Sequence record: PV683292.1
Reading direction: 5' to 3' (one strand)
DNA from: Klebsiella phage HMGUkp2
Length of the DNA stretch: 64,000 nucleotides
Shown here: in pieces, positions 17,390-57,924 of the stretch
How the letters are laid out: every line of letters begins with the position of its first letter
Position numbering within the stretch: the first letter of the stretch is position 1
The notes under the pieces: model-generated
Databases searched by the model: none
What the model was told of the DNA's origin: nothing
The model's input: only the letters and a program-made list of their open reading frames with translations
Made by a program: the position numbers and the translations under genes

Positions 17390-17401
17390 TATTTATAAAT
17401 A
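17390..17401. promoter_or_regulatory. palindromic divergent late promoters TATTTATAAATA (TATAAATA on both strands)
   Basis: + strand TATAAATA 17394-17401 drives gp26; - strand TATAAATA (complement of 17390-17397) drives gp51. T4 has divergent late promoters at the 51/26 junction. Confidence 0.7.
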
Positions 17402-20906: not shown

Positions 20907-20928
20907 TATAAATACATACATATTTATA
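20907..20928. promoter_or_regulatory. divergent late promoters (TATAAATA at 20907-20914 on +; TATAAATA on - as complement of 20921-20928)
   Basis: TTATAAATACATACATATTTATAC lies between the uvsW (-) and inh-like (+) starts. Confidence 0.6.
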
Positions 20929-20947: not shown

Positions 20948-21667
20948 ATGGACAAGCAATATATAGATGACCTTCGCGGTCTTGAAAATAAAAAAGAAGC
21001 TAAAGCCAAACTTATTGAATATGCTGAAGGATTTAATATCCGACTGAAAAAGAGTAAAGGCTTTGAAAACCTAGTCTTAGACATCGAAGCAGCTTTTAAA
21101 AAGATGGCAGAAGAGCCTATGCCGGAAGATAACGAAGGTCTGAGTATTAGCGATCTTATTGCTGCTGATGACGAACTTGAAGGCAGGAATGATTTTGTAA
21201 TCAGTGATGAAGAAGCTAAGCCTGAAGCTAAACTGCTATTTGATTCTCCAGAAATTCCTGTATCTATTCACGAAATCAAAGAAACCGTTCAAGATCAATC
21301 AGTTATTGAAGAAAAAGCTATTCATATTGAGGCGCCTATAGGTGAATTCTCCGAACCCAAGGCTAAGCTTTCTGAAAATACCTTTGAAGAAGCTGTATCT
21401 AAAATTATCGCTGATGAAACTACTTTTGAACTACCGGAAAACTTTAGCCCTCATTTTATTCTGATGGGACGTAATCCAGGGTACGTGACATTACCGTGGT
21501 GGATTTACAAGTGGATTAAAGATACCCCTGATTGGAAATCTAGACCTACCAGTTTCCCACATCCTAGTGCACACCAGACACTGTTTAGTTTAATTTATTA
21601 CATCAAAAGAAACGGATCTATTATGATTCGTGAAACCCGTAATTCTTCGTTTGTAACTTTAAAATAA
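20948..21667 (+). CDS. inh: Inh-like protein (inhibitor of prohead protease gp21), position-based call
   Basis: 239 aa, acidic N-terminal half; between uvsW and hoc as T4 inh (226 aa). Confidence 0.4.
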   Translation: MDKQYIDDLRGLENKKEAKAKLIEYAEGFNIRLKKSKGFENLVLDIEAAFKKMAEEPMPEDNEGLSISDLIAADDELEGRNDFVISDEEAKPEAKLLFDSPEIPVSIHEIKETVQDQSVIEEKAIHIEAPIGEFSEPKAKLSENTFEEAVSKIIADETTFELPENFSPHFILMGRNPGYVTLPWWIYKWIKDTPDWKSRPTSFPHPSAHQTLFSLIYYIKRNGSIMIRETRNSSFVTLK

Positions 21668-21676
21668 GGACCGACT

Positions 21677-22810
21677 ATGGCTTATAGCGTATCTATTGCT
21701 CCTTTGGCTGCCTCAGCAGTCATTGGGGCTACAACTAATTTTACTGCAACCACGTCTGGTGCTGCGGTCGAAGGCACAGAAACATTTGAGTGGACTGTAA
21801 ATGGCGTAAAGCAATCTTCTGTTACTGCAGCTATGAATTATGTTGCTGCAGGACCTGCAGGTAGTAAGACTGTTAAAGTAGTTGCTACCGTCACTCCAGC
21901 TGAAGGCGATCCTGAAACGGCCGAAGCAGAAACTACTCTGACGGTTAAGAACAAAACCATGCCTGCTATTACTTTAACTTTGAGCCCAACTTCAGTTTCT
22001 AAAGAAATTGGCCAATCTCAAGTAGTTACAGCGGATGTTAGCGGGGCACCGGCGGGAGCAAGCATTGCTTACGTGTGGAAACGTGGTACTACTGTTATTG
22101 CAGGCCAAACAGGTAAAACAATTACCTTAACTGAATCAGCGGAAACTAGCTATACACTTAATTGTGAAGTAACGGTTTCTGCGCCAGATTATAATAATGG
22201 AACTGCAACTAAAGGTATCACTGTTGCTTTTACTAAAAAGACCATGAGCGGTGTTTCTGTTACTTTGACTCCTGAGTCTATTACGACCGAACAAGGGTCT
22301 GAAGCATCTTTTAAAGCCAATGTTATCGGCGCACCTTCAGGCGCATCTGTAGCTTATTCATGGACTAAAGACGGTTCTCCTATTGAAGGATCAACAAGTA
22401 CTCTAGAAATTGATACATCTACCATAGGGCCACAAGTAATCGGGGTTTCGGCTGTTGTTTCTGCTCCAGATTATAAACCAGCTACAGTTACTAAAACCGG
22501 TAATGTAACTATTACTAAAAGGGTAGCCCCTACTCCTGACGGAGAACTTCCATACGTTCATCCGCTCCCGTTCAGAGGTTCAGCTTATATCTGGTGCGGA
22601 TGGTGGGTAATGGATGAAATCCAACAAATGACTCTTGAAGGCAAAGATTGGAAACTGGATGATCCTGACAGCGATTATTACTTGCATCGGTATACCCTGG
22701 CTAAAATGCTAGAAGAGTACCCTGAAGTCGATGTCCAAGAATCTAGAAATGGCCGTGTTGTTCACCGGTCCGCTCTTGATGTTGGAATAATCTACGACTA
22801 TATCTACTAA
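21677..22810 (+). CDS. hoc: Hoc, highly immunogenic outer capsid protein with tandem Ig-like domains
   Basis: 377 aa (T4 376); three about 90-aa Ig-like repeats (…TVSAPDYNNGTATK…, …VVSAPDYKPATVTK…); synteny. Confidence 0.7.
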   Translation: MAYSVSIAPLAASAVIGATTNFTATTSGAAVEGTETFEWTVNGVKQSSVTAAMNYVAAGPAGSKTVKVVATVTPAEGDPETAEAETTLTVKNKTMPAITLTLSPTSVSKEIGQSQVVTADVSGAPAGASIAYVWKRGTTVIAGQTGKTITLTESAETSYTLNCEVTVSAPDYNNGTATKGITVAFTKKTMSGVSVTLTPESITTEQGSEASFKANVIGAPSGASVAYSWTKDGSPIEGSTSTLEIDTSTIGPQVIGVSAVVSAPDYKPATVTKTGNVTITKRVAPTPDGELPYVHPLPFRGSAYIWCGWWVMDEIQQMTLEGKDWKLDDPDSDYYLHRYTLAKMLEEYPEVDVQESRNGRVVHRSALDVGIIYDYIY

Positions 22811-23597: not shown

Positions 23598-24596
23598 GTG
23601 TTTGAGAAATATTCTAGTCTTGAGAATCACTACAATAATAAATTTATTGAAAAGATTCGACACCACGGTTATGATGTAACTGAAGGCTGGTGTGCACGTG
23701 AAAAGATTCATGGTACCAACTTTTCTATTATCATTGAACGTGACGCAGTCACATGCGCGAAGCGCACAGGCCCTATCCTTCCAGCTGAAGATTTCTTTGG
23801 GTACACGGTTATTCTGAAGAAATACAATGACTCTATTAAAGCCGTACAAAATACAATTAAAGAAGGCTGCAGCATGCAGATCTTCGGCGAATTCGCTGGC
23901 ACTGGTATCCAGAAAGGTGTTGATTACGGCGAGAAAGACTTCTATGTCTTTGATATCTTGGTTAAAACTGATAAAGGTACTAACCAGTTCGTAGATGACT
24001 TTACGATGGAACAGATGTGTTGCACCTTTGGTTTTAAGGTTGCACCTCTGATGGGCCGTGGTTCATTTGATGAACTAATTAAACTGCCTAATGAGTTCCA
24101 GATTAACGTTAAACGTTACAACGAAGCCGCGGCTGAAGATCTCAGAAATGCTAATACCCGAGTCTGGTCGGCCGAAGAAGCCACAGATAACACGGCAGAA
24201 GGTTATGTACTGAAACCTAACTATCCACGGTTCCTGGCTAACGGCAGTCGTGTGGCTATCAAGTGTAAGAACTCTAAGTTCAGCGAAAAAGCTAAATCTG
24301 ATAAGCCTATTAAGCCTAAAGCTGTTCTGGGTGAAATTGACAAAGAGGTTCTGCAGAAATTCTCTGAATACGTTACTATTCAGCGTGTAAATAACGTTAT
24401 TAGTAAGATCGGTAAGGTTGGTCCTAAAGACTTTGGAAAGGTTATGGGCTTGACAGTTCAAGATATCCTTATTGAAGCTGAACGAGAAGGGCTCGAGGTA
24501 ATTCAAGCAGAACAACCTGATATCGTGAAGAAAGAAATTACTAAGCTGGTACAAGACGTGCTTCGCCCAGCTTGGATTGAATTGGTAAGTAATTAA
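23598..24596 (+). CDS. rnlB: RNA ligase 2 (Rnl2)
   Basis: 332 aa; N-terminus [19 protein letters not shown]...[14 protein letters not shown] (nucleotidyltransferase motif KxHGxNF) is near-identical to T4 Rnl2 (gp24.1, 334 aa). Confidence 0.9.
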
Positions 24597-25140
24597 TGAG
24601 AGTGGCGCTTATTGGTTCTCGAAAGGCGCCCCGCAAAGTTCTTGATTTGATGATATCTATAGGTGAAAACTTTTCAAATAAAGGGTATTTAGCTTATAGT
24701 GGCGGAGCTCCTGGTTCAGATGAAGCCTGGCTGGCAAAATACGATAGGTCTAAATCTTTAAGAATAATACCTTACAACGGGTTCTGCGGGCACTTTGTAG
24801 GCCCAGGGGTTGTAAGTTTTGAAAACTTACCAGCAGACGTTCAAACTGCTAGTTATAGAATAGCTCAATCAGTTACCTCGTACTGGGAAAACTGTTCAGA
24901 TATAGTTAGAAAGTTGTTTGCTCGTAACGCGTGTCAAGTTCTTGGATTAACCTGTCAAAACCCTGTGGATTTAGTTTTATACTGGGCCCGGTTAGAAACG
25001 GTAGAGTTAAAGGCGGGACTAGAGTTGCAGTTGATATAGCTAAAAAGTATGGTATCAAATGTATTAATCTGAACAATTCAGAAGTATTTAAAAAATTCGA
25101 AGATAAGTATAGGCCGAAGTTTGATATTTTCAGTTTATAA
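24596..25140 (+). pseudogene. DprA/Smf-like (SLOG Rossmann) gene split by a frameshift: 24596-25039 in frame 2, continuing 24931-25140 in frame 1
   Basis: N-part LIGSRKAP...YSGGAPGSDEAWLA...ARNACQVLGL matches the DprA Rossmann core (SGxAxGID...RNRIIAGL). The downstream frame encodes GRVKGGTRVAVDIAKKYGIKCINL (compare DprA SGSLITAxxALEQGRxVFAVPG). Frame change lies near 24985-25010. Confidence 0.5.
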
Positions 25141-25164
25141 GGGAGCCATAAGGCCCCATTTTTA
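25141..25164. terminator. bidirectional hairpin GGGAGCCATAAGGCCCC + TTTTTATTT
   Basis: Sits between the converging DprA-like (+) and gp24 (-) genes. Confidence 0.5.
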
Positions 25165-26430
25165 TTTCTCGAGCGGTGGTAACTTAACGCCGAGGTAAGA
25201 ACTTAATAGACTCTGACCAGCCATCTTATCCATATCAGAACCATCGATGATTCGAGCTTCTTTTTCATCTTTAGCAACAGTGTAAGGATTAGCAGACAAA
25301 GCATAACGTGCGAGTAAAGAAATAGTAGGCTGTAAAGAATCAGGGTCGACAACTATCTTGAATTCGCCCATTTGATCTACATCATCTTCTACATCCATAC
25401 CTTCAGTATACGGCGCGTAATATAATGATGCCACCGTCTGGCCTTCACCCATATCTGCATTAACACCAACAATCACATATTCTGCCGGCGTATTCATATC
25501 CGCATAAAGAGGCAGACCATTCTTCAGATAGCCGTAGGCTAACTCATCACCGTCATCTCGTTTTTCAACCCAGCCAGAAGCAGCTAAAATAGCCGCACAG
25601 CGAGAACTAGCCACAGCATATGTCCCGGCGAACGAAGTATTGCGTTGGACGGCAGAATTCATCTCACACATATAGTAATACAACGTACGTGCACGATCCT
25701 GGGCATTATCATATTTAGGGTCCGTAAGGTCTAAAACCCCTTTAGACGACACACCGCGAACTTTAAACCTACTAGAAACTGTAACCAACGATTGAAGAAT
25801 GTCTTTGTTTACTTCTTCAGCCATCTGGATACCTAGCATATCGTCTAAGAAATCAGGGGCATCGAATCCATTAGCTTCTAGGTCTTGGGCTAATTCAACA
25901 GTAACAGAAGTTTTAAGTTTACGGGATTTAACTGTAGTTTGCCATTTATCGACACGGAACCCGGCTTCAGCTATTTCAGGGTGCCCGGCCTCAAACTGAG
26001 CAGTAGGGGCAGCGTCAGAAACCATGCGGATAGTTCCAGCCGCAATAGCTTCAGAAATAAGCTCATCATGGCTGGTTTCAGTAGATCCAGCAAAAGGATT
26101 ATCTTCAAGGGCTTTAAAGACAACAGAGTTATGCTTGAACAGGTCACCTTTATTATATGGGGCTTGGCCGACGAATTCCGGTGTATTGGCCCTGGATTCA
26201 GGACCCATAAGTCCGCCAAATGTAGCGCCGCCTACATAAGTCATATTATCTTCAGGGTTCAGAACTCTGATACCATATAAAGCGGCAACCGGCTGACGAG
26301 TGCGCTGTTCTGCCACAAGGGCCTTAAAGATTCTTTTATTAGTTGCTTTGGTGTATGAAAGTAAATCAGGCCTCCCGGCCTGATTAGAAGAGGTTAAAGT
26401 ACTTTCTTGGATTAATCGATCTATTTTCAT
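25162..26430 (-). CDS. 24: prohead vertex protein gp24, paralog B (distal copy)
   Basis: 422 aa; HK97-fold capsid family; about 50% identical to the adjacent copy; T4 gp24 is 427 aa. Confidence 0.8.
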   Translation of the reverse strand: MKIDRLIQESTLTSSNQAGRPDLLSYTKATNKRIFKALVAEQRTRQPVAALYGIRVLNPEDNMTYVGGATFGGLMGPESRANTPEFVGQAPYNKGDLFKHNSVVFKALEDNPFAGSTETSHDELISEAIAAGTIRMVSDAAPTAQFEAGHPEIAEAGFRVDKWQTTVKSRKLKTSVTVELAQDLEANGFDAPDFLDDMLGIQMAEEVNKDILQSLVTVSSRFKVRGVSSKGVLDLTDPKYDNAQDRARTLYYYMCEMNSAVQRNTSFAGTYAVASSRCAAILAASGWVEKRDDGDELAYGYLKNGLPLYADMNTPAEYVIVGVNADMGEGQTVASLYYAPYTEGMDVEDDVDQMGEFKIVVDPDSLQPTISLLARYALSANPYTVAKDEKEARIIDGSDMDKMAGQSLLSSYLGVKLPPLEK

Positions 26431-27701
26431 TATGGCTCACTTAAAATAGCAGGGAGTTTAACACCCAGAAGGACAGACATGTCGCTTTGACCCGCCATCT
26501 TATCCATATTGGTTGCATCAATATCTCGAGCTTCTTTTTCATCTTTAGCAACGGTATATGGGTTAGCAGACAACGCGTACCGAACCATCAACGAAATAGT
26601 AGGCTGTAAAGAATCCGGGTCGACAACTACCTTAAAGGCGCCGACATGTTCATCATTATCAAGATCAAGGCCTTCAGTATAAGGTGCATAGAACAAAGAT
26701 CCGATAACTTCACTGCCGCCGAAGGATTCTTTAACACCTACAGTGACATAATCTAATGGGCTATTAACATCAACAAATACCGGAAGACCATTAGCCAGGA
26801 ACCCGTACGCAGATTCTGCAAGGTATTCATCATCTTCAGGGCGGTGTTTCAGCCATCCAGACCCAGCCAGAACAGCAGCAGCACGAGCACTAGCAACGAC
26901 AAAGGTCCCAGAATAAGAAGTTTTACTTTGAATATGGCTGTTCATTTCGCAAACTAATTGGTAAAGTTTACGGGCCGCTTCAGGGGCGCTTGAATAAGAT
27001 AAATCGACAGATCCGTCGTCAGAAACGCCTGCAACTTTATAACGTTTAGAAACTGTAATCAAGGATTGAAGAACGTCCTTATTGATTTCATCGGCCATTG
27101 TTGTTGCAAGAAGATCTTCAAGAAACATATTAGCATCAAAGCCGTTAGCTTCTAGATCCTGGGCCAGTTCAACCGTCAGAGAAGTTTTCAGCTTACGGGT
27201 TTTAACTCGAGCGTTCCATTTGTTAACAGTGAAATTAGCAGAACTAATTTCTACATTATTAGATTCAAATTTAGCCGTTTCAGCGGCCTCAGAATAAAAA
27301 CGAAGCTTTAAAGTGATAAGGGCTTCAGACAGCGCCTCGTCAATCGTAGCGCCGTTTAGAGCACCCGATTCTAAGGCCTTATAAACCACATTGTTATACT
27401 TATAAAGTGTCCCTGCCGTCACAGAGTGTGTTGCAGAAGTAATTTCTTCTATACTATCCCGGTCAGATGCAGAAGCAGCACCGCCGTAAGTAGCACCTGT
27501 TTTAAAAGAGAGTTCATCGTCTGGGGTTTCGTATTTAACACCATACAGAGCAGCAACAGGCTGAGTAGTACGTTGTTCGGCGACGATGTCAGTGTAAACC
27601 AATTTAGTAGTAGCGCGGGTCAATGCAACGAGATTCGGGCGACCATATTGGATGCTATTCGTTACAGTTGATTCGCGCAGAAGTTCGTTAATTTTAGCCA
27701 T
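26430..27701 (-). CDS. 24: prohead vertex protein gp24, paralog A (proximal to gene 23)
   Basis: 423 aa; MAKINELLRESTVTNS...; late promoter and hairpin immediately upstream. Confidence 0.85.
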   Translation of the reverse strand: MAKINELLRESTVTNSIQYGRPNLVALTRATTKLVYTDIVAEQRTTQPVAALYGVKYETPDDELSFKTGATYGGAASASDRDSIEEITSATHSVTAGTLYKYNNVVYKALESGALNGATIDEALSEALITLKLRFYSEAAETAKFESNNVEISSANFTVNKWNARVKTRKLKTSLTVELAQDLEANGFDANMFLEDLLATTMADEINKDVLQSLITVSKRYKVAGVSDDGSVDLSYSSAPEAARKLYQLVCEMNSHIQSKTSYSGTFVVASARAAAVLAGSGWLKHRPEDDEYLAESAYGFLANGLPVFVDVNSPLDYVTVGVKESFGGSEVIGSLFYAPYTEGLDLDNDEHVGAFKVVVDPDSLQPTISLMVRYALSANPYTVAKDEKEARDIDATNMDKMAGQSDMSVLLGVKLPAILSEP

Positions 27702-27727
27702 TGCGCTTTCCTCGGGTTGATATAATT

Positions 27728-27735
27728 CTATTTAT
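27728..27735 (-). promoter_or_regulatory. late promoter TATAAATA for gene 24
   Basis: Complement of TATTTATA; followed on the - strand by RBS GAGGAAAG and the gp24 ATG. Confidence 0.65.
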
Positions 27736-27745
27736 AAAGGTCTAC

Positions 27746-27765
27746 AAACAAAAATGGGAGAGCGA
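27746..27765 (-). terminator. hairpin GGGAGAGCGAAAGCTCTCCC after gene 23 (AAAAATGGGAG cassette, copy 1)
   Basis: 8-bp stem; T4 has a stable hairpin downstream of gene 23. Confidence 0.6.
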
Positions 27766-27791
27766 AAGCTCTCCCATAAAGGTTTTTAAAA

Positions 27792-29357
27792 TTACAGGCC
27801 CTTGACCCATACGCGCCGGAAGTAGGCGTTTTTACCAACGGAGTTAACGATGGACGGCATACCAGACTGAATACGTGCACCAGGAGCTTGCAGTTTAGAA
27901 TCAGCGAACGGGTTAATACCAATACCGTAGCGGGTTTTGAAGCCCATGACCGGCTGGAAGTTCTTAGGATCAGAACCACGCAGCGGGGTCAGCGCGACAT
28001 ACGGAGCATAGTAGATACCGGCATCCATTTCGTTGCTGCCTTTATAACCGATGGTGAAGTAGTCCTGCGGAGCATACTGGTCAATGTAGACGCGGTATTT
28101 GCCGCCAAGAACACCTGCAAACACGGATTTAGTGGTGTCAACGTTATAGCCTTTACCGAGGCCTTGAGCAGCATAGGTGATACCAGAATCGGTAGCAGCC
28201 AGCGCGTTTACAACGTTACGGGAAGCGATAATGAAGTTACCTTCACCGCGACCGGTCTGACGAGCGATTTCAGCAGATTCTTTGTCGATCTGGAACAGGA
28301 GAGCTTTAAAGCTTTCACCGGCCCAACGAGCGCCACGGATATCAATCGGATCCTGGAAGTCGAACACACCTGCTTTAGAACCAATGGTCTGGGTCATGCC
28401 GGTTTTACCAGGCTGAGCAGAGTAGTTGATCCAGTCAACAACTTCACGGTTGATTTCCAGCATAATTTCAGTAGCCAGAATAGAACTCAGTTCGGCGTCT
28501 GCATCCATACCATGAACAGCGCGCAGATCCTGTGCCAGTTCGATGGAGTATTGAGCTTTCAGCTGACGAGATTTAGCTTCGATAACTTGCTTATCGATAC
28601 GGAAGCCCATTTCGTTCCACGGGTTATCTTTCGAACCGTTGAAGCCTTCCTGCAGTTCAGCGATAGAAGTAGCCATACCTTCGGCCAGTTCAGCCAGTTT
28701 ACCGGCTTCAACCAGACCCATAACAACTGCATCCAGTGCGGCGGCGTCAGCGGCAGCTCCCGGGGTTACGGTTTCAACAGCCTGGAAGTAAGCAATACCG
28801 GTTTCCTGGAATACATGCTTAACAATATCACCTTCGGTGATTTCAGTGCCTGCTTTAATTTCAGGGAATGCACGACCCTGAGCAGTAGCACCCTGGCCTG
28901 AATACATTGCATCCGGAGCAAACATCGGATGGAAAGCTTCTTTAGCACCCGGTGCAATCGGATCTTTACCGTATACTGCACGCAGTGCAAATACCTGACC
29001 AGTCGGGCTGGACATCGGCTGAACGCCACAGATATCAAAAGCAATCAGATTAGGAATAGCACGACGAACCATACCCATTACGGCCGGGCCGATCTGAGTG
29101 ATAGCACCAGAGGTCTGGCCTGCTGCGATATTCTGAGCATCGTAACCGTGGTCACCGCCAATTTCTGCTTCGCTCAGGAAAGAACCAAAAGCTTCAGCAA
29201 TTTTTTCGTCACGGAAAGCCGGTTCAGTCTGAATAGCTGCTTCCTGGTTTTCCATAATTTTTGCAATCAGTGCTTTCTTACCGGCGCCAACGATTTCCGG
29301 CAGACCTTCACCTTCAAGCAGCGGAGTCCATTTTTCTACGAGTTTGTTAGTTTTCAT
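27792..29357 (-). CDS. 23: major capsid protein gp23
   Basis: 521 aa, the same length as T4 gp23; long stretches identical (…KWTPLLEGEGLPEI…, …GFNGSKDNPWNEMGFRIDKQVIEAKSRQLKA…). Confidence 0.95.
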   Translation of the reverse strand: MKTNKLVEKWTPLLEGEGLPEIVGAGKKALIAKIMENQEAAIQTEPAFRDEKIAEAFGSFLSEAEIGGDHGYDAQNIAAGQTSGAITQIGPAVMGMVRRAIPNLIAFDICGVQPMSSPTGQVFALRAVYGKDPIAPGAKEAFHPMFAPDAMYSGQGATAQGRAFPEIKAGTEITEGDIVKHVFQETGIAYFQAVETVTPGAAADAAALDAVVMGLVEAGKLAELAEGMATSIAELQEGFNGSKDNPWNEMGFRIDKQVIEAKSRQLKAQYSIELAQDLRAVHGMDADAELSSILATEIMLEINREVVDWINYSAQPGKTGMTQTIGSKAGVFDFQDPIDIRGARWAGESFKALLFQIDKESAEIARQTGRGEGNFIIASRNVVNALAATDSGITYAAQGLGKGYNVDTTKSVFAGVLGGKYRVYIDQYAPQDYFTIGYKGSNEMDAGIYYAPYVALTPLRGSDPKNFQPVMGFKTRYGIGINPFADSKLQAPGARIQSGMPSIVNSVGKNAYFRRVWVKGL

Positions 29358-57898: not shown

Positions 57899-57924
57899 TA
57901 TAAATATTGATATATGTATTTATA
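57899..57924. promoter_or_regulatory. divergent late promoters (TATAAATA + at 57899-57906 for gene 4; TATAAATA - as complement of 57917-57924 for gene 53)
   Basis: Both octamers lie in the 53/4 divergent intergenic region. Confidence 0.65.

Follow-up and report, generated by a model that had tools for sequence, protein, structure and literature searches.

A conserved tandem pair of diverged gene 24 paralogs in the head-gene cluster of Klebsiella phage HMGUkp2

The 64,000-nucleotide (nt) stretch of Klebsiella phage HMGUkp2 DNA analyzed here (record PV683292.1; hereafter the window) carries a T4-type head-gene cluster on its minus strand, in the order 20-67-68-21-22-23-24a-24b. We refer to the open reading frame (ORF) proximal to gp23 as 24a and to the distal one as 24b. 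The initial annotation had described two adjacent full-length paralogs of 422 and 423 amino acids (aa) at 25162-27701, roughly 50% identical by eye and resembling gp24 or a gp23-fold vertex protein. ORFs of these lengths lie at exactly these coordinates on the minus strand, and both reading frames are intact. Pairwise BLASTP alignment over the full length gives 54% identity and 73% positives (E = 6e-166), in line with the visual estimate.

Both products match the Pfam family PF07068 (Gp23 family), with 332 bits for 24a and 322 bits for 24b against a cut-off of 24.4. Alignment with T4 gp24 (PDB 1YUE, residues 1-420) runs end to end and yields 639 bits for 24a and 504 bits for 24b, whereas T4 gp23 matches the two proteins at about 45-49 bits only. 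The window's own gp23 is likewise distant, with ~26% identity to either protein over partial length. When T2 gp24 is taken as the T4-type reference, identity amounts to 68.6% for 24a and 56% for 24b. Homology, a length of ~420-430 aa and the late-cluster position directly after gene 23 place both proteins in the gp24 family; neither displays the ~520 aa and the long cleaved N-terminal region (65 residues in gp23) of a gp23-type major capsid protein. Judged by homology, both ORFs are full-length, diverged, tandem gene 24 paralogs. The initial annotation had also considered that the distal copy might be a different HK97-fold protein, but 24b is gp24-type.

In T4, the gp21 protease removes a 10-residue propeptide from gp24 at an E|S site (PMC9958956). 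The corresponding protease motif, L-[L/I]-x-E|S, is kept in all 18 of the 18 aligned copies from phages that harbor two gp24 genes.

Both genes are under strong purifying selection. The ratio of nonsynonymous to synonymous substitution rates (dN/dS) between the window and phage Marfa is 0.045 for 24a and 0.023 for 24b, and between the window and F48 it is 0.063 and 0.035, respectively. Comparisons away from the window give similar values, with 0.049 (24a) and 0.024 (24b) for JS98 vs VR7, and 0.028 and 0.022 for CIP9 vs Kosakonia 305. Overall, dN/dS at unsaturated distances falls at 0.02-0.08 for both copies. Conservation of the 24b orthologs equals or exceeds that of the 24a orthologs: identity between the window and JS98 is 78% for 24b and 73% for 24a, and with F48 it reaches 97% and 94%. 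Disabling mutations in one copy, an outcome the initial annotation had allowed for, are absent. A pseudogene or decaying duplicate was rejected on the intact frames and on dN/dS values far from 1.

Between the two paralogs, synonymous differences are near saturation along the full length, with a proportion of synonymous differences (pS) of 0.48-0.97 per 40-codon segment. Gene conversion between the copies is ruled out, as synonymous sites are saturated everywhere, including the near-identical C-terminal peptide block. The peptide similarity in this block hence reflects selective constraint rather than recent gene conversion.

The closest relatives of the region are the Klebsiella phages EI, Marfa and Clarke_MM3 (genus Marfavirus), at 96.7-97.8% DNA identity, followed by F48 and its relatives at ~92%. 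Records of several relatives already list two such genes. A capsid vertex protein is annotated twice in Marfa, EI and F48; the JS98 record (EF469154) names 24a and 24b, the VR7 record 24(1) and 24(2), the VR20 and VR5 records a "capsid vertex protein II", and the S16 record gp108 and gp109. A tblastn search with 24b, counting scores above those of single-copy gp24, returned 116 phage records with a 24b ortholog. By name, these comprise 55 Escherichia, 21 Klebsiella, 16 Salmonella, 9 Enterobacter and 5 Enterobacteria phages, with 3 Erwinia, 2 Kosakonia and 1 Yersinia phage listed among the remainder. Given its annotation in the closest relatives and its presence in more than 100 other phage genomes, the tandem pair is already known at the annotation level and is neither novel nor a local event. 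A single gene 24 is found in T4, T2, a Jiaodavirus, PG7, Merlin, PM2, PEi20, Acj9, Pm5461, KMI9, JEP8 and Aes508. We also considered a link to 5-hydroxycytosine DNA modification, prompted by a preprint in which the two-copy genera appear; it was dropped, since the preprint includes single-copy genera as well.

In a neighbor-joining tree of 29 gp24 sequences, the 24b proteins all fall into a single clade (100% bootstrap), whose branching order follows that seen among the 24a proteins. When 5.8 billion database proteins are searched, clusters of the 24b type end at 65% identity to the window 24b, and the next hits below them are the single-copy gp24 proteins of Jiaodavirus, at 61%. The three most divergent 24b-type metagenomic proteins are each encoded in the order g23-24a-24b. 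Synteny was inspected in the window, in nine isolates from six genera (Marfa, JS98, VR7, S16, CIP9, Cronus, Kosakonia 305, F48 and EI) and in four metagenomic contigs (L020-L023). In every one of these loci 24b lies directly downstream of 24a, with a junction between -4 and +1 nt. Among the loci examined, which cover part of the 116 records, 24b never occurs alone as the sole vertex gene.

Fixed differences between the 24a and 24b clades occupy 52 alignment columns, and many of them are conservative (Y/F, L/I/V, K/R, D/E). Non-conservative fixed changes include L27Y, L34R, T68G, L135G, P244Q, K289E, H290K and E329A. We judged the derived state by asking which copy shares the state of single-copy gp24; on this measure 29 columns are derived in 24b, 3 are derived in 24a and 20 are unassignable. 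Because 24a shares the single-copy state in 29 of the 32 assignable columns, sequence comparison identifies it as the canonical gp24 and 24b as the divergent copy.

Tajima relative-rate tests offer a view of the age of the split. With Acj9 as outgroup, 24a and 24b carry 52 and 53 unique changes, and with Pm5461 the counts are 51 and 52. Tests in four other two-copy phages had a similar outcome, which rules out accelerated evolution of 24b. With T2 as the third sequence, the unique changes become strongly unequal, at 35 for 24a and 87 for 24b, indicating that T4-type gp24 shares a later ancestor with 24a than 24a does with 24b. Taken with the equal rates, the T2 counts date the 24a/24b split to before the gp24 types of T4, PG7, Merlin, PM2 and PEi20 diverged from 24a. 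Two histories fit this order. In the first, a tandem duplication took place long ago and was subsequently lost by lineages such as T4; in the second, a gp24 was captured beside a resident gene, and the donor would be a deeply diverged, unsampled lineage.

The lower similarity of 24b to T4 gp24 (504 vs 639 bits for 24a) could also be read as the mark of a young duplicate, specific to this phage, in decay or under rapid evolution. We find this explanation hardly credible. The 24b frame is intact, its dN/dS is 0.02-0.04, its orthologs are spread over the 116 records and several genera, it evolves at the rate of 24a, and synonymous sites between the copies are saturated. Orthologue spread, the existence of a 24b clade, dN/dS and the rate tests refute a recent or decaying duplicate. 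Of the tandem gene 24 duplication put forward in the initial annotation, the paralogy of the two copies therefore stands, whereas its novelty and local origin do not, given the 116 records and a split that, by the relative-rate tests, predates the divergence of T4-type gp24 from 24a.

The expression signals around the pair are collected in Table 1. The initial annotation had noted that T4 carries one gene 24 and has segD between genes 23 and 24; this is correct, and the spacer between gene 23 and 24a in the window is 90 nt long and lacks segD. The late promoter and the hairpin that had been attributed to the proximal copy are both present. The Marfa record annotates a terminator at the site homologous to this hairpin. 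A scan of the window detected no TATAAATA box within 25162-27701, and 24b hence lacks a late promoter of its own. The whole window contains 16 TATAAATA boxes, where shuffles give an expectation of 6.0 ± 2.4; most of the boxes are on the minus strand and precede head and tail genes, and back-to-back pairs are found at 17390-17401, 20907-20928 and 57899-57924.

The junction between the two genes reads GTGAGCCATAATG. It had been described as a 0-nt gap of the ATGA type and is in fact a TAATG junction with an overlap of 1 nt. The 24b orthologs display GAGG at the position of the Shine-Dalgarno-like GTGAG of the window, with duplex energies of -5.6 to -5.9 kcal/mol. The computed pairing of the regions upstream of 24a and 24b with the 16S 3' end is similar in the window and in most relatives. 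Expression asymmetry was considered as a hint at stoichiometry and dropped, as Shine-Dalgarno strengths are alike in most phages. On the distal side, the hairpin behind 24b has a plus-strand energy of -10.2 kcal/mol and is followed on that strand by UUUUUAUUU. A consensus terminator scan did not flag this hairpin; Marfa has an annotated terminator at the homologous site. From these signals, 24a-24b looks like a bicistronic, translationally coupled late operon.

Table 1. Genes and predicted expression signals of the 24a-24b region (window coordinates)
Feature	Coordinates	Strand	Details
Gene 24a, canonical capsid vertex protein by homology, 423 aa	26430..27701	-	Propeptide motif MAKINELLRE|S; assigned from homology, tree, dN/dS
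Gene 24b, diverged second gp24-family protein by homology, 422 aa	25162..26430	-	Propeptide motif MKIDRLIQE|S; assigned from homology, 24b clade, dN/dS
Hairpin and U-run after gene 23, intrinsic terminator-like	27754..27777	-	10-bp GC-rich stem, -20.2 kcal/mol, z = -6.6, then UUUUUGUUUG
T4-type late promoter box TATAAATA	27729..27736	-	27 nt upstream of the 24a ATG; sole one ahead of 24a-24b
Shine-Dalgarno GAGGAAA of 24a	27707..27713	-	Duplex with 16S 3' end, -5.9 kcal/mol
Shine-Dalgarno-like GTGAG for 24b, in the last 24a codons	26436..26440	-	16S duplex, -4.6 kcal/mol
TAATG junction, translational-coupling type	26428..26432	-	24a stop TAA shares its last A with the 24b ATG; 1-nt overlap
Short GC hairpin, terminator-like on both strands, between 24b and the convergent DprA-like gene	25141..25157	.	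-10.9 kcal/mol for minus-strand RNA

Considering these results together, the locus is probably a conserved two-gene late operon that encodes two non-redundant gp24-family head proteins. The cleavage motif, the full-length gp24 architecture, the predicted co-expression and the constraint on both genes suggest that 24a and 24b are likely both processed prohead components and non-redundant. Both proteins would enter the prohead, be processed there and form pentameric capsomers at vertices. The 11 non-portal vertices of a prolate head fall into symmetry-inequivalent classes, namely one apical, five distal and five portal-proximal vertices. As the likeliest arrangement, homopentamers of each protein would share out these 11 vertices among them, a proposal that we advance tentatively. 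In its most specific form, which is somewhat more doubtful, separate 24a and 24b homopentamers would sit at inequivalent vertices (for example, the portal-proximal ring vs the distal ring and apex), the two-protein head would be the older arrangement in the group, and the single gp24 of T4 would be a secondary simplification via cassette replacement. T4-type phages with a single gene 24 would have lost 24b or never received the cassette.

The initial annotation had offered heteropentameric or alternative vertices, or a reversal of the bypass-24 phenomenon, as possible meanings of the pair. Coupled genes with Shine-Dalgarno sequences of similar strength suggest that the two proteins are made together, and this would also suit mixed capsomers, with 24a and 24b forming heteropentamers at every vertex. 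The distribution of conservation points the same way, as the best-conserved blocks are common to both proteins: the spine-helix region (T4 residues 177-226) and the C-terminal region (370-390) show 72-79% identity between the clades. However, a regular alternation of two subunit types is impossible in a pentamer, and single-copy relatives build homopentamers, as seen in the T4 structures 1YUE and 5VF3. In addition, several of the 52 fixed differences are non-conservative (among them L34R, L27Y, L135G, P244Q, K289E, H290K and E329A). We regard mixed capsomers as unlikely.

The position of the fixed differences raises another option, in which 24b has a non-vertex role, either as an assembly or protease-activating factor confined to the prohead or at a few special lattice positions, such as beside the portal. 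The N-terminal arm shows a modest enrichment of residues fixed in 24b, with 7 of the 29 located in the first ~45 residues. In gp24 this arm faces the core in proheads and touches neighboring subunits after expansion, and in T4 the gp21 protease is believed to be triggered once gp24 attaches (PMC9958956), which would agree with such a role. On the other hand, 24b keeps the architecture, length and cleavage motif of gp24, and no feature suggests a different oligomeric state. Its best structural matches are gp24 chains: a Foldseek search with the low-confidence AlphaFold2 model of 24b ranked the T4 gp24 chains 5vf3_a, 7vrt and 1yue at the top (E = 5e-34 to 3e-28, TM ~0.46). The predicted HK97 fold of 24b follows from sequence homology and not from this model. 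Altogether, a non-vertex role appears very improbable.

The history of the neighboring gene 23 adds a further aspect, as the gp23 tree conflicts with the gp24 tree. For gp23, Marfavirus groups with the Karamvirus PG7 (89% bootstrap), S16 with Merlin (100%) and Kosakonia 305 with PM2 (100%). In the 24a and 24b trees, by contrast, the two-copy phages group together. Pairwise identities reflect the same conflict: S16 and Merlin are 91% identical in gp23 and 67% in gp24(a), and Kosakonia 305 and PM2 are 93.5% identical in gp23 and 72.6% in gp24(a). PEi20, a Kanagawavirus as are CIP9 and Kosakonia 305, harbors a single gp24 of the PM2 type, and not a 24a that is missing its partner. Members of Kanagawavirus thus differ in their vertex-gene content, with one gp24 in PEi20 and the 24a/24b pair in CIP9 and Kosakonia 305. 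In both the gp23 tree and the identity comparisons, no gp23 lineage was found to be specifically tied to the presence of 24b.

The discordance between gp23 and gp24 indicates that the whole vertex-gene cassette, single or double, is the unit exchanged between T4-like phages, and that the same gp23 lattice works with either. The differing histories of gp23 (27792-29357) and 24a-24b (25162-27701) point to a recombination boundary in or near the 23-24 spacer. Some relatives harbor homing endonuclease genes in this spacer, namely segD in T4 and KMI9 and another one in PhiKpNIH-6, and homing endonucleases would be a plausible driver of cassette exchange. In PhiKpNIH-6 (MN395284, Marfavirus), the match to the 23-24a-24b region at 133533-138478 comes in two pieces. 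These pieces span ~700 nt more than the query, and a homing endonuclease gene is annotated under the match.

As one gp24 is enough in relatives with nearly identical gp23, the two proteins could also be conditional alternates, either of which can build all vertices, each performing better under some temperature, pH, host or capsid-sensing defense. The low-temperature VR phages, which are among the two-copy phages, would fit such a scheme. In T4, gp24 influences how well the capsid withstands low pH and digestive factors (PMC10580926), which is also in keeping with it. However, the genes form a single operon with no sign of differential regulation, and both show very low dN/dS over a long divergence and over hosts from Escherichia to Erwinia. 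Moreover, 24b is never the sole vertex gene among the examined loci. Conditional alternates thus seem an improbable explanation.

Several points weigh against two non-redundant vertex proteins of ancient origin, as favored here. The first is architectural: one vertex protein suffices in phages with nearly the same gp23, so a second is not required by the shell. Other points concern the age of the split. Deep nodes of the neighbor-joining tree have 9-38% bootstrap and are unsupported, which leaves rooting and dating by topology inconclusive, and quartet site counts of 11:4:5 lean in the same direction as the rate tests but are weak. It is chiefly the relative-rate tests that support a great age of the split. 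For 24b, the AlphaFold2 model is of low confidence, with a predicted local distance difference test (pLDDT) score of 59 and a predicted template-modeling (pTM) score of 0.57, too poor for an analysis of interfaces. Literature and PDB searches returned neither virion proteomics nor genetics nor a capsid structure for any phage with two copies. A full-text literature search found no study of the function, virion presence or structure of the second gp24 copy, and a PDB search with 24a and 24b matched T4 sequences alone, with no structure of a 24a or 24b ortholog.

Downstream of the pair, a DprA-like gene (24596-25140, plus strand) is convergent with 24b and is split into two ORFs, 24596..25039 and 24931..25140. 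Compared with the intact 546-nt gene of EI, it is one C short in a C-run near 24986 (GGGCCCCGG in place of which the window reads GGGCCCGG), and it is either a frameshifted pseudogene or the result of a homopolymer sequencing error. In F48, a 177-nt fragment alone is annotated at this position. In Marfa, 24b is immediately followed by a hypothetical gene of 792 nt on the same strand (locus L001, 5317-6108), and in a Jiaodavirus a gene of the same 792-nt length directly follows the single gene 24 (locus L010, 4327-5118). The different downstream genes of close relatives mark the region just after the vertex genes as a hot spot of insertion and deletion. Farther along, a 377-aa ORF at 21677-22810 (plus strand) combines repeated immunoglobulin-like segments with a conserved C-terminal part and lies at the position of Hoc in relatives. 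It is adjoined by an ORF at the Inh position (20948-21667, plus strand). The F48 annotation shows the Hoc-like gene in two fragments.

T4, with its single vertex protein, serves as the reference model for the assembly of large prolate capsids. Many of its relatives have long kept a second, strongly conserved protein of the vertex family, among them Klebsiella, E. coli and Salmonella phages considered for therapy. The interest that remains lies in the role of 24b and in the indication that the single-gp24 arrangement of T4 may be neither ancestral nor the only one. If the two copies do hold different vertex classes, they would be paralogs that mark non-equivalent five-fold positions in a prolate shell. 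Such a division would bear on how prolate heads set their length and polarity.

Compared with the pairs of JS98, VR7, S16, Marfa, EI and F48, the pair in the window displays no substantive difference. These pairs and that of VR20 share the order g23-24a-24b, the tight junction, the protein lengths and the clade, and the Marfa proteins are nearly identical to those of the window (99.5% for 24a and 99.3% for 24b). Variation is limited to details of the junction and the downstream gene. The window has TAATG where JS98 has a 0-nt gap and F48 an ATGA with a 4-nt overlap, and 24b is followed by the DprA-like gene in the window and EI, by the extra 792-nt ORF in Marfa and directly by rnlB in JS98.

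With T4 gp24 (1YUE, 5VF3, 7VS5), both proteins share the end-to-end alignment, a short propeptide ending at E|S, the position after g23 and the late promoter. T4 differs in having one gene 24 and segD between 23 and 24, whereas the window has two copies and no segD. An earlier step of the same kind, a tandem capsid-gene duplication followed by specialization, has been inferred in reviews for the origin of gp24 from gp23 (PMC9958956, PMC10580926). Those two proteins also stem from tandem capsid-gene copies, but they are ~20-26% identical and have established hexamer and pentamer roles, while 24a and 24b are 54% identical. The bypass-24 mutants of T4 gene 23 likewise concern the filling of vertices, the occupancy of which they show to be plastic in evolution. 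In bypass-24 the need for a vertex protein is removed, whereas in the window a second vertex-family protein has been added and kept.

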